From: a virus | Taxonomy: Duplodnaviria; Heunggongvirae; Uroviricota; Caudoviricetes | Virus record (IMG/VR): IMGVR_UViG_2531839665_000020 | Location: 1 to 26,759 of that record | Strand: one strand, 5' to 3' | Length of the DNA: 26,759 bases | Part shown: piece after piece, positions 1 to 16,018 of the stretch | How the letters are laid out: every line of letters begins with the position of its first letter | Position numbering within the stretch: the first letter of the stretch is position 1 | Program-made: the position numbers and the translations under genes | Notes under the pieces: model-generated | What the model was told of the DNA's origin: nothing | What the model saw: only the letters and a program-made list of their open reading frames with translations | Databases searched by the model: none

Positions 1-381
1 ATGCAGAAAAATGTGACTCCCGGCAGGCGAAAAGGCTGCCCTAATTATCCTCCCGAATTTAAACAGCAGCTCGTTGCTGCCTCCTGTGAACCCGGGATAT
101 CCATCTCAAAACTTGCTCTTGAAAATGGCATTAACGCCAATCTGTTGTTCAAATGGCGACAACAATGGCGCGAGGGAAAGCTGCTATTACCTTCTTCAGA
201 GAGCCCCCAGCTACTTCCTGTGACTCTCGATGCAGCTGCCGAACAGCCAGAATCGCTCGCAGAGGACCCGGAAACCCTCAGTATCAGCTGTGAGGTAACG
301 TTCCGGCACGGGACGCTCCGCTTCAATGGCAATGTCAGCGAAAAGCTCCTGACTCTGCTGATACAGGAACTGAAGCGATGA
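1..381 (+). CDS. IS66-family accessory protein orfA (TnpA-like)
   Basis: 126-aa ORF starting at base 1; N-terminal helix-turn-helix-like region (KQQLVAASCEPGISISKLALENGINANLLFKWRQQW) typical of IS66 orfA; stop overlaps the orfB start (ATGA at 378-381). Confidence 0.85.
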   Translation: MQKNVTPGRRKGCPNYPPEFKQQLVAASCEPGISISKLALENGINANLLFKWRQQWREGKLLLPSSESPQLLPVTLDAAAEQPESLAEDPETLSISCEVTFRHGTLRFNGNVSEKLLTLLIQELKR

Positions 382-725
382 TCCCGTTACCTTCCGGGAC
401 CAAAATTTGGCTGGTTGCCGGTATCACCGATATGAGAAATGGCTTCAACGGCCTGGCTGCGAAAGTACAGACGGCGCTGAAAGACGATCCCATGTCCGGC
501 CATGTTTTCATTTTCCGGGGCCGCAGCGGCAGTCAGGTTAAACTGCTGTGGTCCACCGGTGACGGGCTGTGCCTCCTGACCAAACGGCTGGAGCGTGGGC
601 GCTTCGCCTGGCCGTCAGCCCGTGATGGCAAAGTGTTCCTTACGCAGGCGCAGCTGGCGATGCTGCTGGAAGGTATCGACTGGCGACAGCCTAAGCGGCT
701 GCTGACCTCCCTGACCATGCTGTAA
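378..725 (+). CDS. IS66-family orfB (TnpB)
   Basis: 115-aa ORF with IS66 TnpB signature ([22 protein letters not shown] ... FIFRGRSG); translationally coupled to orfA. Confidence 0.9.
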
Positions 726-774
726 ATCTCTTTATCCTGGTTGTCACAGAATAAGCCCGGTAAAATACGGGCTT

Positions 775-2313
775 ATGAACGACATCTCTTCTGACGACAT
801 CTTCCTGCTGAAACAGCGCCTGGCCGAACAGGAAGCGCTGATCCACGCCCTGCAGGAAAAGCTGAGCAACCGGGAGCGCGAAATAGACCATCTGCAGGCG
901 CAGCTGGATAAACTCCGCCGGATGAACTTCGGCAGTCGTTCCGAAAAAGTCTCCCGCCGTATCGCACAAATGGAAGCCGATCTGAACCGGCTTCAGAAAG
1001 AGAGCGATACGCTGACTGGTAGGGTGTATGACCCGGCAGTACAGCGTCCGTTGCGTCAGACCCGCACCCGTAAGCCGTTCCCTGAATCACTACCCCGTGA
1101 CGAAAAGCGACTGTTGCCTGCGGCGCCGTGCTGCCCGAACTGCGGCGGTTCACTGAGCTATCTGGGCGAGGATACCGCCGAACAGCTGGAGTTGATGCGT
1201 AGCGCCTTCCGGGTTATCCGGACGGTACGGGAAAAACATGCCTGTACTCAGTGCGATGCCATCGTGCAGGCACCTGCACCTTCGCGGCCCATCGAGCGGG
1301 GTATCGCCGGACCGGGGCTGCTGGCCCGCGTGCTGACCTCGAAGTATGCAGAGCACACCCCGCTGTATCGCCAGTCAGAAATATACGGCCGGCAAGGTGT
1401 GGAGCTGAGGCGTTCACTGCTGTCGGGCTGGGTGGATGCATGCTGCCGGCTGCTGTCTCCGCTGGAAGAGGCGCTTCATGGCTATGTCATGACTGACGGC
1501 AAACTCCATGCCGATGATACCCCGGTCCAGGTACTGCTGCCGGGTAATAAGAAGACGAAGACCGGGCGGTTGTGGGCGTATGTTCGTGATGACCGCAATG
1601 CAGGGTCAGCGTTGGCACCTGCAGTGTGGTTCGCTTACAGCCCGGACAGAAAAGGCATCCATCCGCAGACTCATCTTGCCTGCTTCAGCGGTGTGCTGCA
1701 AGCGGATGCGTACGCCGGGTTCAACGAGCTGTATCGCAATGGTGGGATAACGGAAGCTGCCTGCTGGGCTCATGCCCGCCGAAAGATCCACGATGTGCAC
1801 GTCCGCATCCCGTCAGCACTGACGGAAGAAGCCCTGGAGCAGATCGGTCAGTTGTACGCCATAGAGGCGGATATAAGGGGAATGCCGGCAGAGCAGCGGC
1901 TTGCTGAACGTCAGCGAAAAACGAAACCGTTGTTGAAATCCCTGGAAAGCTGGTTGCGTGAAAAGATGAAGACCCTGTCGCGACACTCAGAGTTGGCGAA
2001 GGCGTTCGCGTACGCACTTAACCAGTGGCCGGCACTGACGTACTATGCGAACGATGGCTGGGTGGAAATCGACAACAACATCGCTGAAAATGCCCTGCGG
2101 GCGGTCAGTCTGGGTCGTAAAAACTTCCTGTTCTTCGGCTCTGATCATGGTGGTGAGCGGGGAGCGCTACTGTACAGCCTGATCGGGACGTGCAAACTGA
2201 ATGACGTGGATCCAGAAAGCTACCTTCGCCATGTGCTTGGCGTCATAGCAGACTGGCCGGTCAACCGGGTCAGCGAACTGCTTCCGTGGCGCATAGCACT
2301 GCCAGCTGAATAA
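775..2313 (+). CDS. IS66-family transposase (orfC)
   Basis: 512-aa ORF with N-terminal leucine-rich coiled coil, CxxC...CxxC zinc-finger region and DDE-type core, following orfA/orfB as in IS66. Confidence 0.9.
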
Positions 2314-2396
2314 CACATCCCCGTCAATACGGCCCTCGCTGTACGCTTACGGTATTTCTGACTCATGGCCGTTTTTATAATGCGGCCAGGTGTTTT

Positions 2397-2747
2397 TTAC
2401 AACATTGTCAGGGCGTTAAGGCGGGATGTTTTTGGCTGACGCCAGTCCAGCTTATCGAGGAGCATTGCCAGTTGCGAGCGGGTAATGGATACCTTACCGT
2501 CACGCACCGCAGGCCAGATAAACTGGCCTTCCTCCAGGCGTTTGGTGAACAGGCACAGACCATCAGCATCAGCCCAAAGAATTTTAACGGTGTCCCCCCG
2601 TCGGCCACGGAAGATAAACAGGTGACCGGAGAAGGGATTATCATTCAGCACATGTTGTACCTGTTCTCCCAGTCCGTTGAAGGATTTACACATATCGGTA
2701 ACGCCGGCAACGAGCCAGATACGGGTACCTGATGGGAGTGAAATCAT
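2397..2747 (-). CDS. IS66-family orfB (TnpB), second copy
   Basis: 116 aa, MISLPSGTRIWLVAGVTDMCKSFNGL..., clearly paralogous to the 378..725 product but diverged. Confidence 0.85.
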   Translation of the reverse strand: MISLPSGTRIWLVAGVTDMCKSFNGLGEQVQHVLNDNPFSGHLFIFRGRRGDTVKILWADADGLCLFTKRLEEGQFIWPAVRDGKVSITRSQLAMLLDKLDWRQPKTSRLNALTML

Positions 2748-3169
2748 CTTCCCCTCCCGCTCAGTTCGCGGATTAACATCGTGAGCAGCTCTGGCGATGG
2801 ATTTTCCAGCGTCATGTTACCGTGACGGAATTCCACCTTGCAGGAACTGGCACTGACTCTGGTCTGAGTGGAAGTGGATAAAGACGGCGCAATGGCCGCC
2901 ACAGGTTCTTTCTGCTCATCCGGCGTTATTTCTACAGGTAATAATTCAACGCCAGTGTCAGAAGAGGTTGTTACCGGAAGACGCCGCGAAACATGCCCTT
3001 CGTTCTGCCAGAGCCTGAGCCATTTGAAAATAACATTATCATTGACGCCATTTTCTCGTGCAATCTGTGTAACACAAGCTCCAGGTTGTGATGCCAGTTC
3101 AACCATACGAAGTTTGAATTCATTCGAATACTTTTTACGAGGTTCTTTTCGCCAGTCCTGTAATTCCAT
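2744..3169 (-). CDS. IS66-family orfA, second copy
   Basis: 141 aa with the same HTH-like motif (EFKLRMVELASQPGACVTQIARENGVNDNVIFKWLRLW); ATGA-type overlap with downstream orfB. Confidence 0.8.
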   Translation of the reverse strand: MELQDWRKEPRKKYSNEFKLRMVELASQPGACVTQIARENGVNDNVIFKWLRLWQNEGHVSRRLPVTTSSDTGVELLPVEITPDEQKEPVAAIAPSLSTSTQTRVSASSCKVEFRHGNMTLENPSPELLTMLIRELSGRGR

Positions 3170-3296
3170 ACTTAGATGTCCGTCTGTGTCAGATGGGCGT
3201 CTAAGTTACCAATTCTTGTCTAATGGCTACATACGGCGGTCGGTTTACGCTTACTCTAATTCGTCAGATTCTGACCAGACGGTTCAGGCTGTACGC

Positions 3297-3431
3297 TTAC
3301 GATTCTTTAGGCAGATAATAATTTTGATCAGCCCATTCAACTGCCGTCATTGGTACAACCCTGACCAGAGGCTGCAGCGCAACCGAAACGGCAGCCATCA
3401 TATTATTCAGTTGTTGCTCTGATATATTCAT
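3297..3431 (-). pseudogene. Terminase large subunit (gpA-like), N-terminal ~44 codons only, truncated by IS66 insertion
   Basis: Translation MNISEQQLNN...PMTAVEWADQNYYLPKES matches the lambda gpA N-terminus pattern (MNIS...TAVEWADANYYLPKES); the reading frame runs into the IS66 terminus at 3300 and stops at 3297; start overlaps the 3' end of the Nu1-like gene. Confidence 0.7.
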
Positions 3432-3912
3432 CGAGTAAATCCGGTAATTTATCCCCTGCCCGCGCACACTGATTTGCCCCCTTAGCAATAAGGGTTTTCA
3501 GATGGTCAAGATGGCGCGGTGTTAAATCAGGAAACTGTCGCTGCATGGATAAAGGGATGGAATCAAGCGTACTGGATAACGCCATTGCCAGCTTACTGAG
3601 GGCAAAAATACAGAACCCGGTGTCAATAAGTTTTCCTTTTGACACCTCATTTTTTAACTGCTGTGTAACAGCCTGTTCTGCTGTCAGTTCCCATCTGGCA
3701 ATAAGCAATTTCTCCTCATAGTCGTCTTCGCTATCGCCATCAGGCACATCGTTTTTACTTCTCCTCAGATACGATATGTAAAAATCGCGCCAGGCATCCA
3801 GATCCAGTTGCCCTCGCTTATTCGATATCGGGGCACCCGGCAATTTCTGCAATCTGCGAAGCTGGCGATCGGTCAGACTTAAATGCCTGGCAACTTCAGT
3901 CTGCGTAGCCAC
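3403..3912 (-). CDS. Terminase small subunit, Nu1-like
   Basis: 169 aa; C-terminal region (TGFCIFALSKLAMALSSTLDSIPLSMQRQFPDLTPRHLDHLK...LLDEYI) resembles Nu1/NohA; GTG start preceded by GAGGTGAGGA; cos site immediately upstream. Confidence 0.8.
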   Translation of the reverse strand: MATQTEVARHLSLTDRQLRRLQKLPGAPISNKRGQLDLDAWRDFYISYLRRSKNDVPDGDSEDDYEEKLLIARWELTAEQAVTQQLKNEVSKGKLIDTGFCIFALSKLAMALSSTLDSIPLSMQRQFPDLTPRHLDHLKTLIAKGANQCARAGDKLPDLLDEYIRATTE

Positions 3913-4613: not shown

Positions 4614-4928
4614 TTAGCATTTTTTTGACCGCGCGTTTCCGGACGTATTCTGTTCTCCTGTCCCTTTATATCGTCGGAATACCCGCCGCTCTTCAAATCC
4701 CATTCCCAACTCAGAATGTAGTCTGTTGACCGCTTGTTTTATTTCGGTCAGGTTCACCGGTGAAACCGGAGTCCGGCGCGCCTTACGCAAACACTCTGCT
4801 CGTTTCTGTGCCGCCACTTTTCTTTTCTGGTCATCACTTAGCTGTACCATCACTTTTGCCCATCGTTCAGCTGCTCTCCGGTACAGTCCTTTTTTCTCCA
4901 GACATTCTGCCACGTGATCATGTAGCAT
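4614..4928 (-). CDS. PerC-family transcriptional regulator (Pch-like)
   Basis: 104 aa; motif LEKKGLYRRAAERWAKVM matches the PerC/Pch signature; ATG preceded by GGAGG; long A-tract-rich region upstream. Confidence 0.7.
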   Translation of the reverse strand: MLHDHVAECLEKKGLYRRAAERWAKVMVQLSDDQKRKVAAQKRAECLRKARRTPVSPVNLTEIKQAVNRLHSELGMGFEERRVFRRYKGTGEQNTSGNARSKKC

Positions 4929-7009: not shown

Positions 7010-7273
7010 ATGAATGAAGAAAATACAGCGCTTTTTGACAGAATTTTCACTCTTGAGTTACAGGTCGGTTTTCTTCTCCCAAAGATAATCAAAGCCATGG
7101 ATGCACTTGGTAAGAATAACGCTGTGTCAGATTACCTGATCGCCGAAATGGAACATCTCATTAAAGAAATACCAAAGACCGATGCTCGTGATGATAAAAG
7201 ATTCCTCAGGGCTGCTGAAAATGCTCTTTCAACAGTGAAGCGCAGTTCAGGCGCGCAGCTAATTCAAGAATAG
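7010..7273 (+). CDS. Hypothetical protein (87 aa), convergent with the 7206..7736 gene
   Basis: AT-rich ORF with protein-like helical composition; weak SD; 3' end overlaps the opposite-strand gene by 68 bp. Confidence 0.45.
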   Translation: MNEENTALFDRIFTLELQVGFLLPKIIKAMDALGKNNAVSDYLIAEMEHLIKEIPKTDARDDKRFLRAAENALSTVKRSSGAQLIQE

Positions 7274-8668: not shown

Positions 8669-10606
8669 TTACGGGTTATTCACTTCCACTGTTATACTTT
8701 CAATCAGCACCGGATATGTCGCACCGCTAGTGATATCGGTCACGCGCAATTTGTCTGCCGTAAACGTGCCGACCGGTGACTGTGACAGCATGAACGGCGT
8801 CCCGTCCTTACCATCAATGACCGGCGTCACCTCAATACTGTTGTTACCGGCAAAACGGAAGCCCAGCGTATGCCATTCGTTATCAAATGCGCCGAATGAC
8901 CCCAGCTTCGTGTTCTGACCAGCATTTCCCTTGTGGTACATCACATTAAGGTCTGTGGCATCGCTCTGTACGTAAAACGACGCCAGCAGGTTATGAGCGG
9001 CATTACCTTCCAGTGTGACGCCCTGAGGCAGTGAAGAAACCGGCCAGTACAGCGCCAGTGCGTACTGATTAGCTGTCAGTGTGCCATCAACTTTAAAACG
9101 ACAACTGATAAGCCCGCCCTTCTCCAGCAGGTCTGCGCCATTACCGGCATCATGCTGCATAAACCACGAGGAACTTCCTGTCTGTTTGGTCCACCTCAGC
9201 GCCTTACCTCCTGCAGCACCTGCATCATCAACTACCAATGCACGCCCTCCTTCAGCTCCCCATCCCTGCGGATTCAGTAAACCACCTGACTCTGTTGCAC
9301 GGTAATAAAGCAGCGTTGTCACTGATTTCCCGTCCGTTGACGGTGTTGATGGTGTGTCCGGTGACGGCTTCTCATCCGGCGGCATCACAACCTGTTCCCC
9401 ACCCACCAGTTCAGCCGTCCGTCCTGCATGGAGAAGAATCGCTGAGGCAAGACGGTCAGAAATAATCCCCCTGCGTGCCCATGAGCTGAAATGGCTCGCA
9501 CGGTCTGCTGACGTCCAGTTTGCCGACGTCCGGGAGGCCGCACCGTAATATCCTGATGCCGGAATATCCGGGTCTTCTTCCGGTTTGTTCGTCGGGACAT
9601 TTGCTCCGTTCTCATCGGTCATGAACGGCACAAAGTGAATATTCTTTTCCGTTTTGTTTTTGTAACTGCCGTACACCGTCTGGTAAGTGGATTCGCTCTT
9701 CTGCTTCCAGAAATAAGTTGTGTCTCCACATATCCAGGGAACACCGTCAGCAGAACCACCAGCGCACTGTCCCACCATATCTGCAAGGTCCGTACGATAT
9801 TGTTCCACTACTTCTGTAAAACGGGCTGTGTGATTTGCTGGCGTTCCGTCAAAGTCAAATTCCCCCTGCATCCACACCACGGCAAGCAGCACATTTTTCG
9901 GGTTCTTTGCCAGCGCGGCTTTTGTACGACCGATGAGATCCTTATACAGCGGCCTGCCCACACCCCAGCGGGTAGAACTCTCTGAGGCACCGGTCACGTC
10001 ACTGTATGTTCCATCTGCCCCGGTGGTGAAAGCTGAACCACCACGGCAGCACGGAACCAGAAGAATACCCGCATTCGCCGGTATAAACGGCAGCAGCTTT
10101 TTGGCAATATGCAGCCCCTGCCCCACGGTTCCGTACTGACCTTTCGACAGGTCAGCTTTCGGATGGTTAAGACGGCTCATGTCCTGTACATCATGCAGAC
10201 AGTGGTCTGCCGGAATAATGTCGTTATATTTACAGGGAGCGCCATCCGGCGTCACTGTGCTGCGACGAGCCAGTTGCTTTATACGCGGGTCAGGACGGTC
10301 ATATGTCTGCGGCAGAGGAAGCCCCTCACCGTAAGCCATGCCGTTCGACTGCCCGGCCAGTGGAATAACGTAGTAATAATCTGGCTCCGTGGTGACCACT
10401 CCCGGATAGCCACCATCCCCCGTGCCGGGCACAACCACTGGCGTGGTCACATCCCCCTCCGCGGCAATCGCCTGCATCAGGGTATAAGGGGTTATGGCCA
10501 CCGGACTACCAAACGGCTGCCAGCCCTCTTTCAGTTTGTGTGTCAGCTTTTCCGCAAGATCTGACGGCGACGCCGCCCTGACAACATCATAATGTTTAAT
10601 CGACAT
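8669..10606 (-). CDS. nanS-p: Prophage sialate O-acetylesterase NanS-p type (DUF1737 N-terminus + SGNH esterase + C-terminal lectin-like domain)
   Basis: 645 aa; GQSN esterase motif (VIPLAGQSNGMAYGEG); length and architecture match the NanS-p proteins found downstream of stx in EHEC prophages; ATG preceded by GGGAG. Confidence 0.9.
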   Translation of the reverse strand: MSIKHYDVVRAASPSDLAEKLTHKLKEGWQPFGSPVAITPYTLMQAIAAEGDVTTPVVVPGTGDGGYPGVVTTEPDYYYVIPLAGQSNGMAYGEGLPLPQTYDRPDPRIKQLARRSTVTPDGAPCKYNDIIPADHCLHDVQDMSRLNHPKADLSKGQYGTVGQGLHIAKKLLPFIPANAGILLVPCCRGGSAFTTGADGTYSDVTGASESSTRWGVGRPLYKDLIGRTKAALAKNPKNVLLAVVWMQGEFDFDGTPANHTARFTEVVEQYRTDLADMVGQCAGGSADGVPWICGDTTYFWKQKSESTYQTVYGSYKNKTEKNIHFVPFMTDENGANVPTNKPEEDPDIPASGYYGAASRTSANWTSADRASHFSSWARRGIISDRLASAILLHAGRTAELVGGEQVVMPPDEKPSPDTPSTPSTDGKSVTTLLYYRATESGGLLNPQGWGAEGGRALVVDDAGAAGGKALRWTKQTGSSSWFMQHDAGNGADLLEKGGLISCRFKVDGTLTANQYALALYWPVSSLPQGVTLEGNAAHNLLASFYVQSDATDLNVMYHKGNAGQNTKLGSFGAFDNEWHTLGFRFAGNNSIEVTPVIDGKDGTPFMLSQSPVGTFTADKLRVTDITSGATYPVLIESITVEVNNP

Positions 10607-10949
10607 CGAATTTCTCCCGTGTACAGGAACAGAGTTAAAAAGCCGGAACCGGAATCAAATCACAGGATGACCATCTGCCAGTGGCTGGTCGTAAAAAAAA
10701 GGCCGCGCCATGCGCAGCCGGAAATAAAGGGATAACGATGATAGTTTGAGAAAAACAGAAATAACACTTTTGTGGCAAAGCATGGTGCCGGGTGCCTCCC
10801 GGTGAATTCAGTACCAGCACCTGAATCCGCGATTATCCCATATACCTAGTTGCTGATTGCCCCTCCGCACAGGGGGATTCACCATGCAGTAGTATTTTTA
10901 ATAAACAGTAAACAAAAAAATCAAGCATTATGCAGGCTGTTTCTTTTTA

Positions 10950-11087
10950 TCACCGGCCACAGCAATACCACAATGCCGCAGACCAGCCCCCATCCGCCAG
11001 CACCGACATGATTCTGCTGGTGAAATCCACCATCACCACCAGAAACAGCAGGAGTGCAGCCACAGCCAGGCGCAGTTTTACCGTCAC
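10950..11087 (-). CDS. Small hydrophobic ORF (45 aa, GTG start), speculative
   Basis: GTG overlapping the TerB-like stop (GTGA) with GGAG 10 nt upstream; product MTVKLRLAVAALLLFLVVMVDFTSRIMSVLADGGWSAALWYCCGR has one TM helix; not in the ORF track because it is under 60 aa. Confidence 0.25.
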   Translation of the reverse strand: MTVKLRLAVAALLLFLVVMVDFTSRIMSVLADGGWSAALWYCCGR

Positions 11088-11480
11088 AGGTGATTCTCCA
11101 GACGAAGCCCCAGAACACCGGCAATCTCTTCCAGCACCTTGCGCTCTTCCGGCTCAATTTCGCCGTCTGCCTCCGCAATGGCCACCGCCACATCCAGCAC
11201 ATCTTCCGCTTCACGCGTATCGCGTTTCACATCCTCGATCTCACGTAACGCCGCACGACGACCAATTTTAAAGTTCGTATCCAGCTGACCGATAATGGTT
11301 GCGCTAATCGCATTAATTTCTGACGTAAACGCGGACAGCGCTGGCTGATTACGCAGTACCTGTTCGATCTTCGCTTTCTAGGAAGCCTCACATTCACCAT
11401 TTGCACAGGCCACCAGGTATGCGGCGTTAATCACCGCCTGTGCCAGATCGCGTTTCTCAAACTTTCCTTTTTCCGGTTAA
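11084..11480 (-). pseudogene. TerB-like (tellurite-resistance TerB domain) gene remnant, disrupted
   Basis: Manual - strand translation gives ...KGKFEKRDLAQAVINAAYLVACANGECEAS(amber)KAKIEQVL...AVAIAEADGEIEPEERKVLEEIAGVLGLRLENHL with two TerB-like ADGE-type repeats; in-frame TAG at 11378-11380, upstream TAA, no usable start. Confidence 0.45.
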
Positions 11481-11579
11481 CGTGACACACCAATAACTCT
11501 TGTCGAAAAAGCCAGCAAGCTGAAAGACCGGTATTCACAACCACCAGCGCGTTTACTGTACTGGCGTGATTTCAGTCAT

Positions 11580-11606
11580 AAAAAAACCCGCCTGGCGACG
11601 GGTGTA
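11580..11606 (-). terminator. tR'-like rho-independent terminator downstream of PR'
   Basis: On the - strand: GC-rich imperfect hairpin (CACCCGTCGCCAGGCGGG) followed by TTTTTTT; about 60 nt downstream of the predicted late promoter. Confidence 0.7.
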
Positions 11607-11683: not shown

Positions 11684-12505
11684 CTATCTGGTCACCTTTT
11701 TCAGTTGTTGTTCTGCCCATGCTTCTTCAATATCAAACTGCACCACCAGCGTATCGTAAAAACGTTTAACTGTTTTTTTCCATGTATCAAGAGATATGGC
11801 ATCGGTTACATTACATATGGCATTAAATGCCTCCGTTGAAGGTAATCTTTCATAGCCACGACCACCACAACGCTGGCAGTCTCTGATAACAGGCATACCA
11901 CGTTTTACCGACTCTTCACGATGAATGGCAACACCGCGCCCACGACAATCTTTACAGGCGGTGGAAACCTCCCCCTTCCCTCCACACTCCGGACAGGCAA
12001 CTTTTACCACCTCCCTGACTTTTTTCCATTCCTCCCAGTAAGACGGATACACGCCTTTTGTGCACTTTGCCCACACTGGCGGCTTACCATCCGGATACTG
12101 GATCTTGTTTGTAAAAACCTCGCTTTCAATAAATTTTTTTCCGTGACAACAGGGGCACTGTTTTTTGCTCGCCGCGCTACGGGCATAATCTTCAAACGCA
12201 TACGAAGCCATAATACGCATCACTGCCGGTTTTATTTCTGCCGGGAGTTTTCTTAACGCCGCCACGCGATCACACCGACTGAGTGCATATTCTGTCAGCA
12301 ATTCTGTTGCCCGCTCTCTGTCATTCATACTAATGCCCATTTTCCCAAGGAACGCAGAAAACCCCATCTCAGCCCAATTCTGTGTCATGCCCTGCGCGGC
12401 CATCACATCAGTGATACTCAGCGTATCTTTCGACGTTGAGGCCGATGCATCAGTCAGGCCGGGGGATTTTGGGGAGTAGTATTTCGGTAAATCTTCCAGT
12501 TTCAT
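11684..12505 (-). CDS. Q: Late antiterminator Q (phage 82/21-type, zinc-binding)
   Basis: 273 aa with four CxxC motifs (CPCCHGKK, CPECGGKG, CKDCRGRG, CQRCGGRG) and overall similarity to 82-type Q; ATGA overlap with rusA stop. Confidence 0.85.
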   Translation of the reverse strand: MKLEDLPKYYSPKSPGLTDASASTSKDTLSITDVMAAQGMTQNWAEMGFSAFLGKMGISMNDRERATELLTEYALSRCDRVAALRKLPAEIKPAVMRIMASYAFEDYARSAASKKQCPCCHGKKFIESEVFTNKIQYPDGKPPVWAKCTKGVYPSYWEEWKKVREVVKVACPECGGKGEVSTACKDCRGRGVAIHREESVKRGMPVIRDCQRCGGRGYERLPSTEAFNAICNVTDAISLDTWKKTVKRFYDTLVVQFDIEEAWAEQQLKKVTR

Positions 12506-14765: not shown

Positions 14766-14921
14766 TTACTCCTCAGGTTCGTAAGCTGTGAAGACAGCGA
14801 CCTCCGTCTGGCCGGTTCGGATTCGTACCTCGCAGAGGTCTTTCCTCGTTACCAGTGCCGTCACTATGACGGTTAAACAGATGACGATCAGGGCGATTAA
14901 CATCGCCTTTTGCTGCTTCAT
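14766..14921 (-). CDS. hok: Hok/Gef-family type I toxin (51 aa)
   Basis: MKQQKAMLIALIVICLTVIVTALVTRKDLCEVRIRTGQTEVAVFTAYEPEE matches the Hok family; ATG preceded by AAGGAGAAG; an in-frame upstream ATG at 14978 gives a 70-codon mok-like extension. Confidence 0.85.
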   Translation of the reverse strand: MKQQKAMLIALIVICLTVIVTALVTRKDLCEVRIRTGQTEVAVFTAYEPEE

Positions 14922-14924
14922 AGC

Positions 14925-15010
14925 CTGCTTCTCCTTGACCTTTCGGTCCGTAAGAGGCAATCTATATGTGACGAGCATATAGGGGCCTCACTTCGATTTA
15001 TAGTCGGGTG
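14925..15010 (+). ncRNA. Predicted Sok-like antisense RNA region (approximate)
   Basis: Placed by analogy with plasmid R1 hok/sok: leader elements GCTTGAGGCTATCTGCCTC and GATTGCCTCTTACGG resemble the R1 hok leader as I recall it; exact RNA ends not determinable by eye. Confidence 0.3.
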
Positions 15011-15112
15011 GGGCTTTTATCTATCTGCCGTTGGTGTTCATGCCCGAGGCAGATAGCCTCAAGCACCCGCAGCAATTCTACTTAACTCTGCCGTTACAGC
15101 AAGCCGTTTTCG

Positions 15113-15259: not shown

Positions 15260-16018
15260 TCAAGTGCCTTTCCTGGTCCAGCCATATTTTTTGAATGCAG
15301 GCGCCGCTTCATCGGTTTGTAGCCATTCTGCAAATCGACGGGTTTCATCATTTGCATCCTGACGTACTGTAATGTTCATATCACGCCATATCACGTAGTC
15401 TGGCGCTATTTCCACGACATCACCAATTTCTGGATTACTGGCTGCCCAGTCAGCCCAGGTTATCCAGACATCTGCTTCAGGCTGATTCTCAAGAGCCTTA
15501 CGTGCAGTTCCGCTATTGGGCGCATATAAAATAATATTTTTTCGGATTGCGGCGACAGTTTCTATATTCCCTTTACGTCCGGCAATATCTTCCCAGACGC
15601 CAGTGCCTGATGTATTACTGGTACCACCACCATCATTAACAATTACGCCAATCCCGGGTCTGGTCAGGTCGTCAATACTCCGGATATTTTTAGGATTACC
15701 TTTCTTTACCAGTAAAATACTTTTTCGCAGATAAAGAGGCTGAATATCTTTTTCACTGAAGCTGTCTTTATGGTCCCGAATGATAGCCAGAGCAGATTGT
15801 TCTGATGCGCCAAACAAGATATCTGCATTTTTTTTGGCATCTTCATTCCATTTGTTCTGTGGGCCGTAATGAACGTTCACTATAATACCTGTTTTTTCGG
15901 CATAAAGTTTGGCTGCATCAAGCAAGGCTGTATGCGGGCCACCAGGACCATACAGATTGATATCAGCATAAGCAGCAGAAGACAGGAATATTAAAAAACC
16001 TGCCATTATGTTCCTCAT
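15260..16018 (-). CDS. Orphan periplasmic substrate-binding protein, ModA/TupA-like
   Basis: 252 aa; signal peptide (MAGFLIFLSSAAYA); ADILFGASEQSA and C-terminal AAPAFKKYGWTRK resemble E. coli ModA (ADLFISADQKW; AAEIFKRYGFTIK); no permease or ATPase gene adjacent. Confidence 0.8.
   Translation of the reverse strand: MRNIMAGFLIFLSSAAYADINLYGPGGPHTALLDAAKLYAEKTGIIVNVHYGPQNKWNEDAKKNADILFGASEQSALAIIRDHKDSFSEKDIQPLYLRKSILLVKKGNPKNIRSIDDLTRPGIGVIVNDGGGTSNTSGTGVWEDIAGRKGNIETVAAIRKNIILYAPNSGTARKALENQPEADVWITWADWAASNPEIGDVVEIAPDYVIWRDMNITVRQDANDETRRFAEWLQTDEAAPAFKKYGWTRKGT

Follow-up and report, generated by a model that had tools for sequence, protein, structure and literature searches.

A disrupted TerB-domain gene between tR' and nanS-p of a defective lambdoid prophage, very probably a relic of the phage accessory operon tciA-tciB

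The TerB domain (Pfam PF05099) is found in TerB of the terZABCDEF cluster, which is associated with resistance to tellurite, phages and colicins (IncHI2 R478; K. pneumoniae TerB, PDB 2JXU) and in which TerB acts as part of a multigene ter operon. Among phages, the tci genes of P1 owe their assignment to homology with terB of the R478 ter cluster (PMC4319500, PMC9603915). P1 carries a third gene, tciC, and its operon lies next to ban and not in the late moron slot of lambdoid phages. The P1 genes are non-essential and often lost (PMC10695390, PMC9603915): tciABC is dispensable in P1 (PMC10695390), and is missing from about half of one subgroup of P1-like phage-plasmids (PMC9603915). No tellurite phenotype or function test for phage tci genes is reported in PMC4319500, PMC9603915 or PMC10695390, and 'stress' or 'tellurite resistance', as applied to the prophage gene described here, would be a name given by homology only.

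Closer to the present locus are the intact tciA-tciB pairs of phages Evi, JLK-2012 and PPyecE_EH1910, in which tciA specifies a protein of 143 aa and tciB one of 55 aa, the two genes being coupled by a GTGA overlap and placed between Q/tR' and nanS-p. The intact pair is common and strongly conserved, and also occurs in E. coli prophages such as those of O145 RM9872, 2013C-4830 and E110019 (the E. coli proteins are WP_000466924.1, TciA, together with WP_000216636.1, TciB). In contrast to TerB of the ter operon, the only partner of tciA is the 55-aa membrane peptide, and no ter genes are nearby. The DNA analysed in this study (the window) is a stretch of 26,759 nt from the virus record IMGVR_UViG_2531839665_000020. 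It carries a similar pair on the minus strand, with the same coupling and in the same position, but differs from the intact pairs in three respects: codons 1-17 of tciA and its ribosome-binding site are missing, codon 46 is an amber, and tciB has a 1-nt deletion.

The locus itself has been seen before. RefSeq pseudogene ECO103_RS29490, which corresponds to window positions 11446..11084, and its equivalents EDL933_RS30185 and ECO55CA74_RS27630 represent the same locus at 100% identity, and the label 'tellurite resistance TerB family protein, internal stop' is used in O103:H2 12009, O55:H7 RM12579, 377323_2f and O157:H7 EDL933. As it is annotated as a pseudogene of a known family, the locus must be regarded as already known; the RefSeq entries record only the internal stop, however, and neither the 5' deletion nor the tciB frameshift. 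Some database entries derived from the locus are artefacts. A 48-aa fragment ORF (11084-11230, minus strand) has been deposited as 'TerB domain protein' on 64 contigs in the variant of the window and on 802 in a His variant, while the frameshifted 45-aa TciB (WP_001435346.1, 217 contigs) carries the annotation of a normal DUF3927 protein instead of that of a pseudogene.

Read 5' to 3' on the minus strand, the order is Q, a terminator, a leader, the TerB-like frame, a 45-codon ORF, an sRNA gene of the STnc100 family, and nanS-p. The features are as follows.

11684..12505, minus strand: late antiterminator Q gene, 273 aa (ORF; RefSeq 'antitermination protein' WP_000762928.1 in E. coli O103:H2 12009).
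11579..11603, minus strand: tR'-type intrinsic terminator, a 7-bp GC-rich hairpin followed by a T-run (terminator scan).
11466..11578, minus strand: post-tR' leader of 113 nt, not TerB-derived (sequence comparison with Stx2 phages).
11460..11472, no strand assigned: deletion junction in A/G-rich microhomology (sequence comparison).
11084..11465, minus strand: what is left of tciA, a TerB-domain gene of 143 codons, namely codons 18-143 and the stop (Pfam TerB; homology to intact tciA).
11378..11380, minus strand: amber replacing Glu46, GAG to TAG (comparison with intact copies).
10950..11087, minus strand: tciB' (DUF3927), 45-codon frameshifted form of a 55-codon gene (Pfam, PHROG 1470).
10987..10991, minus strand: G5 homopolymer, site of the tciB frameshift (comparison of G-run variants).
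10921..10986, minus strand: displaced 3' part of ancestral tciB, out of frame (ancestral stop TGA at 10923..10921).
10747..10913, minus strand: prophage gene for an sRNA of the STnc100/PasD family, next in line downstream (Rfam RF02076, scoring 102 bits where the gathering score is 47).
8669..10606, minus strand: nanS-p, SASA-family sialate O-acetylesterase, which bounds the slot downstream (ORF; RefSeq WP_000023165.1).

The terminator is conserved in sequence in Stx2_EH1910 and PPyecE_EH1910, and its position after Q suggests that it is tR'. The remnant lies downstream of Q and this terminator, upstream of nanS-p and the lysis genes, and on the strand of the late transcript, which places it in the late moron slot of lambdoid phages. 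A previous reading of the sequence alone (the sequence-only reading) had equated this position with that of stx in Stx phages, and the related Stx2a phage Stx2_EH1910 bears this out: it has the same Q, tR' and leader (the leader region is 99.6% identical over query positions 1-238, compared with about 90% for many Stx2 phages) and the same nanS-p. Its cargo between these landmarks consists of a methylase gene, three tRNAs, stx2AB and an iraM-like gene, whereas that of the window is the dead tciAB. The leader stops within the Shine-Dalgarno region of a 65-aa ORF, which is itself absent from the window. Directly after the T-run of tR' there is an 8-codon mini-ORF (11553-11579, minus strand; ATG ACT GAA ATC ACG CCA GTA CAG TAA), which is conserved in Stx2_EH1910 and present with changes in PPyecE_EH1910.

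The remnant translation matched Pfam TerB at 38.5 bits (cut-off 24.4, E=1.6e-9), above the curated threshold, and the small ORF matched Pfam DUF3927 (PF13064) at 36.9 bits (cut-off 25, E=3.6e-9). Both matches are far beyond chance, and this is not a chance ORF. The intact homologue scored 60.2 bits against TerB and matched PHROG 632 ('tellurite resistance') over 143/143 positions (E=1.7e-69); it also aligned with K. pneumoniae TerB (PDB 2JXU) over about 125 residues (E=4e-8), including Glu46, and was 42-51% identical over its full length to TciA of P1, the P1 tci genes sharing their PHROG families with the window pair. The small ORF belongs to PHROG 1470 ('TciB-like', E=3e-18), with the match limited to residues 1-33. 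At the DNA level, the remnant is 90-97% identical to intact tciA from codon 18 onwards. The TerB-like character proposed earlier for this disrupted coding sequence is thus upheld. On these similarities, the pair is identified as the phage genes tciA (TerB-domain protein) and tciB (tiny membrane protein), a known two-gene accessory module that takes its name from phage P1. A role in defence was sought in a PADLOC scan, which gave only a sub-threshold match of 14.5 bits, and a scan of NCBIfam returned nothing beyond weak matches to the TerB-like region of DjlA.

The first lesion concerns the 5' end of tciA. For every full-length tciA, position 11465 (codon 18) is the exact point from which homology to the window begins, so that the deletion took the ribosome-binding site and the first 17 codons. 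The parent of the leader reads 'CCGGAAAAGGGAAAAAG|ACATG', comprising the Shine-Dalgarno sequence and the ATG of the 65-aa ORF, the tciA parent reads 'ATTAAAAAG|TTTGAG' (codons 17-18), and the junction in the window reads 'CCGGAAAAAGGAAAGTTTGAG'. Both parental sequences are held by PPyecE_EH1910, in the order leader, 65-aa ORF, DNA methylase, toxin-antitoxin-like pair and tciA; a single deletion of about 2.6 kb in such an arrangement would yield that of the window. The junction is not peculiar to this record, since 481 complete E. coli genomes, out of 5,426, cover a 70-mer that spans it. These data modify the earlier description in several ways. The disrupted gene had been given the extent 11084-11580, of which only 11465..11084 is TerB-derived, while 11578..11466 is the unrelated post-tR' leader. 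An in-frame TAA upstream of the frame is indeed present, at 11479..11477, and it stands in unrelated sequence because it falls within that leader. The frame had also been said to have no usable start; this is correct for the ATG and ribosome-binding site, which were lost with codons 1-17, but in-frame GTG codons persist, and the RefSeq model begins at one of them (11446).

The second lesion, the in-frame amber, was confirmed as TAG at 11380..11378. Glu46, which it replaces, is present in 79 of 79 intact IMG/VR copies, and K. pneumoniae TerB has a Glu at the aligned position. It belongs to the first of two acidic repeats of the form 'ADGE....EE(K/R)', which reads ANGECEAS* in the window against an ancestral ADGECEASEK, the conserved Glu having become the amber and an Asp having become Asn at 11401; the second repeat (ADGEIEPEER) is intact. 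In place of an uninterrupted 143-codon ORF with a start codon and ribosome-binding site, the window has a frame with codons 1-17 and the ribosome-binding site deleted and codon 46 an amber. The remnant is a pseudogene derived from a TerB/PHROG 632 member, and not a functional member of that family.

The sequence-only reading had raised the possibility that the amber was a recent inactivating mutation, and a sequencing error in an otherwise functional gene would have the same appearance; with the amber set aside, the frame is well preserved and open from 11476 to 11087. The distribution of the allele speaks strongly against both. Among 5,426 complete E. coli genomes, a 69-mer carrying the amber was found in 15 independent chromosome records in the form of the window and in 521 in that of EDL933 (the two forms differ at 11401), a total of about 536, which include O157:H7, O55:H7, O103:H2, O145, O45:H2 and O121. 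One systematic error across sequencing platforms would be an implausible source of so many records, and their number, together with the presence of the allele in other prophage backgrounds, shows that the amber is genuine and not recent. The GAG counterpart of the 69-mer was found in 40 records, on intact genes. In all, tciA loci occupy about 2,660 places in these genomes. Furthermore, reversion of the amber alone would not restore the gene, because 17 codons and the ribosome-binding site are absent. That the locus is a functional gene spoiled by a recent change or a misread base is, therefore, highly improbable.

The same amber also occurs on full-length tciA genes in four prophage backgrounds besides that of the window. 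The tciA genes of O145:H28 RM12581 and RM9872 differ by the amber base alone, O157:H7 FRIK2455 has an amber tciA in a tRNA-bearing prophage, strain Z1322HEC0006 carries the amber on its only tciA copy, and the fourth case is the IMG/VR contig L018. The full-length tciA loci compared for the codon-46 amber were these.

L012, 3001-3432
L013, 3005-3433, compared with L014, 3005-3433
L015, 3005-3433
L018, 1501-1932

The FRIK2455 locus differs from that of ATCC 35150 at 3 of 6,178 aligned bases, and two of the three, lying 4 nt apart in tciA, switch between the haplotypes 'GCA TCC GAG' and 'GCT TCC TAG', while the flanking paralogue-specific sites 11436 and 11342 are unchanged. The most economical reading of this patch would be a gene conversion of less than 94 nt, in either direction, between paralogues on co-resident prophages. 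A truncated donor copy is presumably present in FRIK2455 itself, judging from EDL933 and from the four copies per O157:H7 genome. Taken with the other backgrounds, the amber is apparently an old allele that circulates among lambdoid prophages by recombination or gene conversion.

The third lesion lies in tciB. The tightly coupled 45-codon hydrophobic ORF noted previously is present at 11087..10950, the tciA stop TGA (11086..11084) overlapping its GTG start (11087..11085) as GTGA, and comparison with intact phages showed it to be a frameshifted copy of the 55-codon gene. Intact phages read GGGGTG at the G-run; the window has lost one G and has G5, giving 45 aa with an altered C-terminus from which the second hydrophobic segment has been frameshifted away. 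In place of a full-length TciB of about 55 aa with two hydrophobic segments, the product matches profile positions 1-33 of 54. The lost C-terminus, 'LVCGIVVLLWPVIKRNSLHNA', can be read in another frame, at the end of the minus-strand ORF 11214..10921, where it gives a weak match to DUF3927 positions 34-50. The run varies within the truncated lineage, in which a T-to-G change created G6: O55:H7 RM12579 has this G6 run, with tciB still 55 aa, and strain 377323_2f has G7 and a tciB of 53 aa. As tciB' still has, 8 nt before its GTG, a GGAG that could plausibly serve as Shine-Dalgarno sequence, and is not flagged as a pseudogene in RefSeq, some TciB product may still be made.

The intact tciA genes of Evi and PPyecE_EH1910 differ at 1, 1 and 40 sites by codon position, the changed codons being 38 synonymous and 2 non-synonymous. 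Between amber copies the counts are 1 synonymous and 4 non-synonymous (window versus EDL933) and 0 and 2 (window versus RM12579), which are small numbers. This pattern would fit strong constraint on the intact gene that was relaxed after inactivation, although, with the remnant still about 97% identical to intact alleles over 381 nt, the support for neutral decay comes from small counts only. The earlier suggestion of a decaying moron is supported by the three independent lesions, the mostly non-synonymous substitutions after inactivation, and the degraded state of the prophage. The concentration of variation at third positions identifies the tciA frame as the only meaningful one, which bears on whether a real gene is encoded across 11084-11580 in another frame or on the other strand. 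Five ORFs do overlap the region, two on the plus strand (10930..11271, 113 aa; 11054..11248, 64 aa) and three on the minus strand (11214..10921, 97 aa; 11406..11227, 59 aa; 11544..11431, 37 aa). None of them has a significant Pfam match, the sole signal being the displaced TciB C-terminus that ends the 97-aa ORF, and RefSeq annotates none of the five. An intact gene in an alternative frame was effectively refuted by the Pfam scan and the codon-position pattern, and its probability is negligible.

Could the remnant still give a functional product? Translation could begin at GTG 11446 and read through the amber, or be confined to the 48-aa C-terminal ORF that starts at GTG 11230 and ends at 11084. 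In-frame GTG codons are available, the 48-aa ORF contains the second DGE..EE motif, it is often called as a protein (the 64 and 802 contigs mentioned above) and forms phrog_3920, and several prophages keep full-length genes with the amber allele. Against this, a direct reading of the sequence shows no well-spaced Shine-Dalgarno sequence for either GTG, the residue lost to the amber is a Glu shared with TerB by conservation, substitutions among the amber copies are mostly non-synonymous, and the 48-aa piece is less than half of a TerB domain. Suppressor tRNAs were searched for, but no tRNA genes of any kind were found in the window; intact relatives have Ile/Arg/Arg or Asn/Thr/Gly tRNAs just upstream. 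A functional product from the remnant is accordingly considered very unlikely.

The DNA might also be kept for a role in cis, supplying the STnc100/PasD-type sRNA with its promoter or 5' flank, or serving as a spacer ahead of nanS-p in the late transcript. The sRNA gene begins 36 nt past the present tciB stop, and the block tciA-tciB-sRNA-nanS-p is syntenic at all loci examined. Just upstream of STnc100 lie the stop of ancestral tciB (10923..10921) and, within the 3' end of that gene, a CATAAT hexamer noted by eye at 10932..10927, so the sRNA promoter may overlap this 3' end. A 2026 preprint (10.64898/2026.05.13.724894) describes a linkage of STnc100/PasD and TerB genes in the same prophage neighbourhoods. 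However, such a role would constrain only the last ~60 nt or so of tciB and not the 380-nt tciA remnant, and the promoter rests on a single hexamer that was not flagged in a promoter scan of the region, which flagged neither PR' nor an sRNA promoter. Rfam scans at gathering and permissive thresholds detected no family inside the remnant, but only STnc100 downstream and sub-threshold noise at tR'. Retention for a cis function appears unlikely, though less so than the other alternatives, and it is compatible with, and not opposed to, the locus being a pseudogene.

The locus is, then, very probably an inactivated, non-functional relic of the phage accessory operon tciA-tciB. Its history may be envisaged as follows. 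The ancestor would have carried, in the late-transcript moron slot between tR' and nanS-p, a gene for a 143-aa cytoplasmic TerB-domain protein, GTGA-coupled to one for a 55-aa protein with two hydrophobic segments. By extension, the biochemical role of the intact pair would be that of a cytoplasmic TerB-domain protein likely working with, or tethered by, a small membrane protein. If the ancestor resembled PPyecE_EH1910, a deletion of about 2.6 kb between A-rich microhomologies would have removed the post-leader genes together with the tciA ribosome-binding site and codons 1-17. Codon 46 became an amber in place of the Glu conserved with TerB, and the loss of one base from the tciB G-run eliminated the second hydrophobic segment. 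Late RNA antiterminated by Q probably still runs through the region. A TerB-domain protein would not be made, because there is no ribosome-binding site or ATG and translation from GTG 11446 would stop at the amber after 22 aa. The most that might be produced is a 45-aa TciB with a scrambled C-terminus, translated from its own GGAG Shine-Dalgarno sequence.

The surrounding element is itself degraded. From position 7272 onward, the window matches the Qin-type prophage next to ydfJ in O103:H2 12009 with 99.8% identity, while the left 7 kb differs. Lysis genes, a PerC homologue, a truncated Nu1 gene and IS66-family elements are found towards the left of the window. The presence of the IS66 elements and the truncated Nu1 gene indicates a defective prophage. 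Positions 1-3912 hold an IS66-family HTH transposase, TnpB_IS66 and a 512-aa DDE transposase on the plus strand, and a second, partial copy on the minus strand; these adjoin the truncated terminase small-subunit (Nu1) gene, and no morphogenesis genes are found on that side. Flanked by the lysis genes on one side and the truncated Nu1 gene on the other is the gene for the PerC-family transcriptional activator homologue (4614-4928, minus strand; Pfam PerC E=4e-44). The early region includes a hokD/sok type I toxin-antitoxin system (sok, Rfam 104 bits), the DicF sRNA (Rfam 77 bits), dicB, and the AcfC-family adhesin gene paa, at the following positions.

14766-15068, minus strand: hokD/sok
22012-22063, plus strand: DicF
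22238-22426, plus strand: dicB
15260-16018, minus strand: paa

In biological terms the finding is a minor one, a further case of accessory genes decaying in a defective lambdoid prophage of EHEC-type E. coli. It is of value for annotation, as the 5' deletion and the tciB frameshift are unrecorded in RefSeq and the 48-aa fragment even seeds a PHROG family of its own. The mildly interesting residue is that a single nonsense allele recurs across prophages, apparently by recombination or gene conversion, and this shared amber allele provides a convenient tracer of such exchange between co-resident prophages. The occurrence of the same nonsense codon in several backgrounds leaves room for selection on the allele, and it is conceivable, if improbable, that selection actively favours the codon-46 amber in EHEC genomes with several prophages. 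Were it advantageous to lose TciA, for example by relief from a cost or from an interference between co-resident phages, this would be an instance of selected pseudogenisation spreading by gene conversion between prophages.
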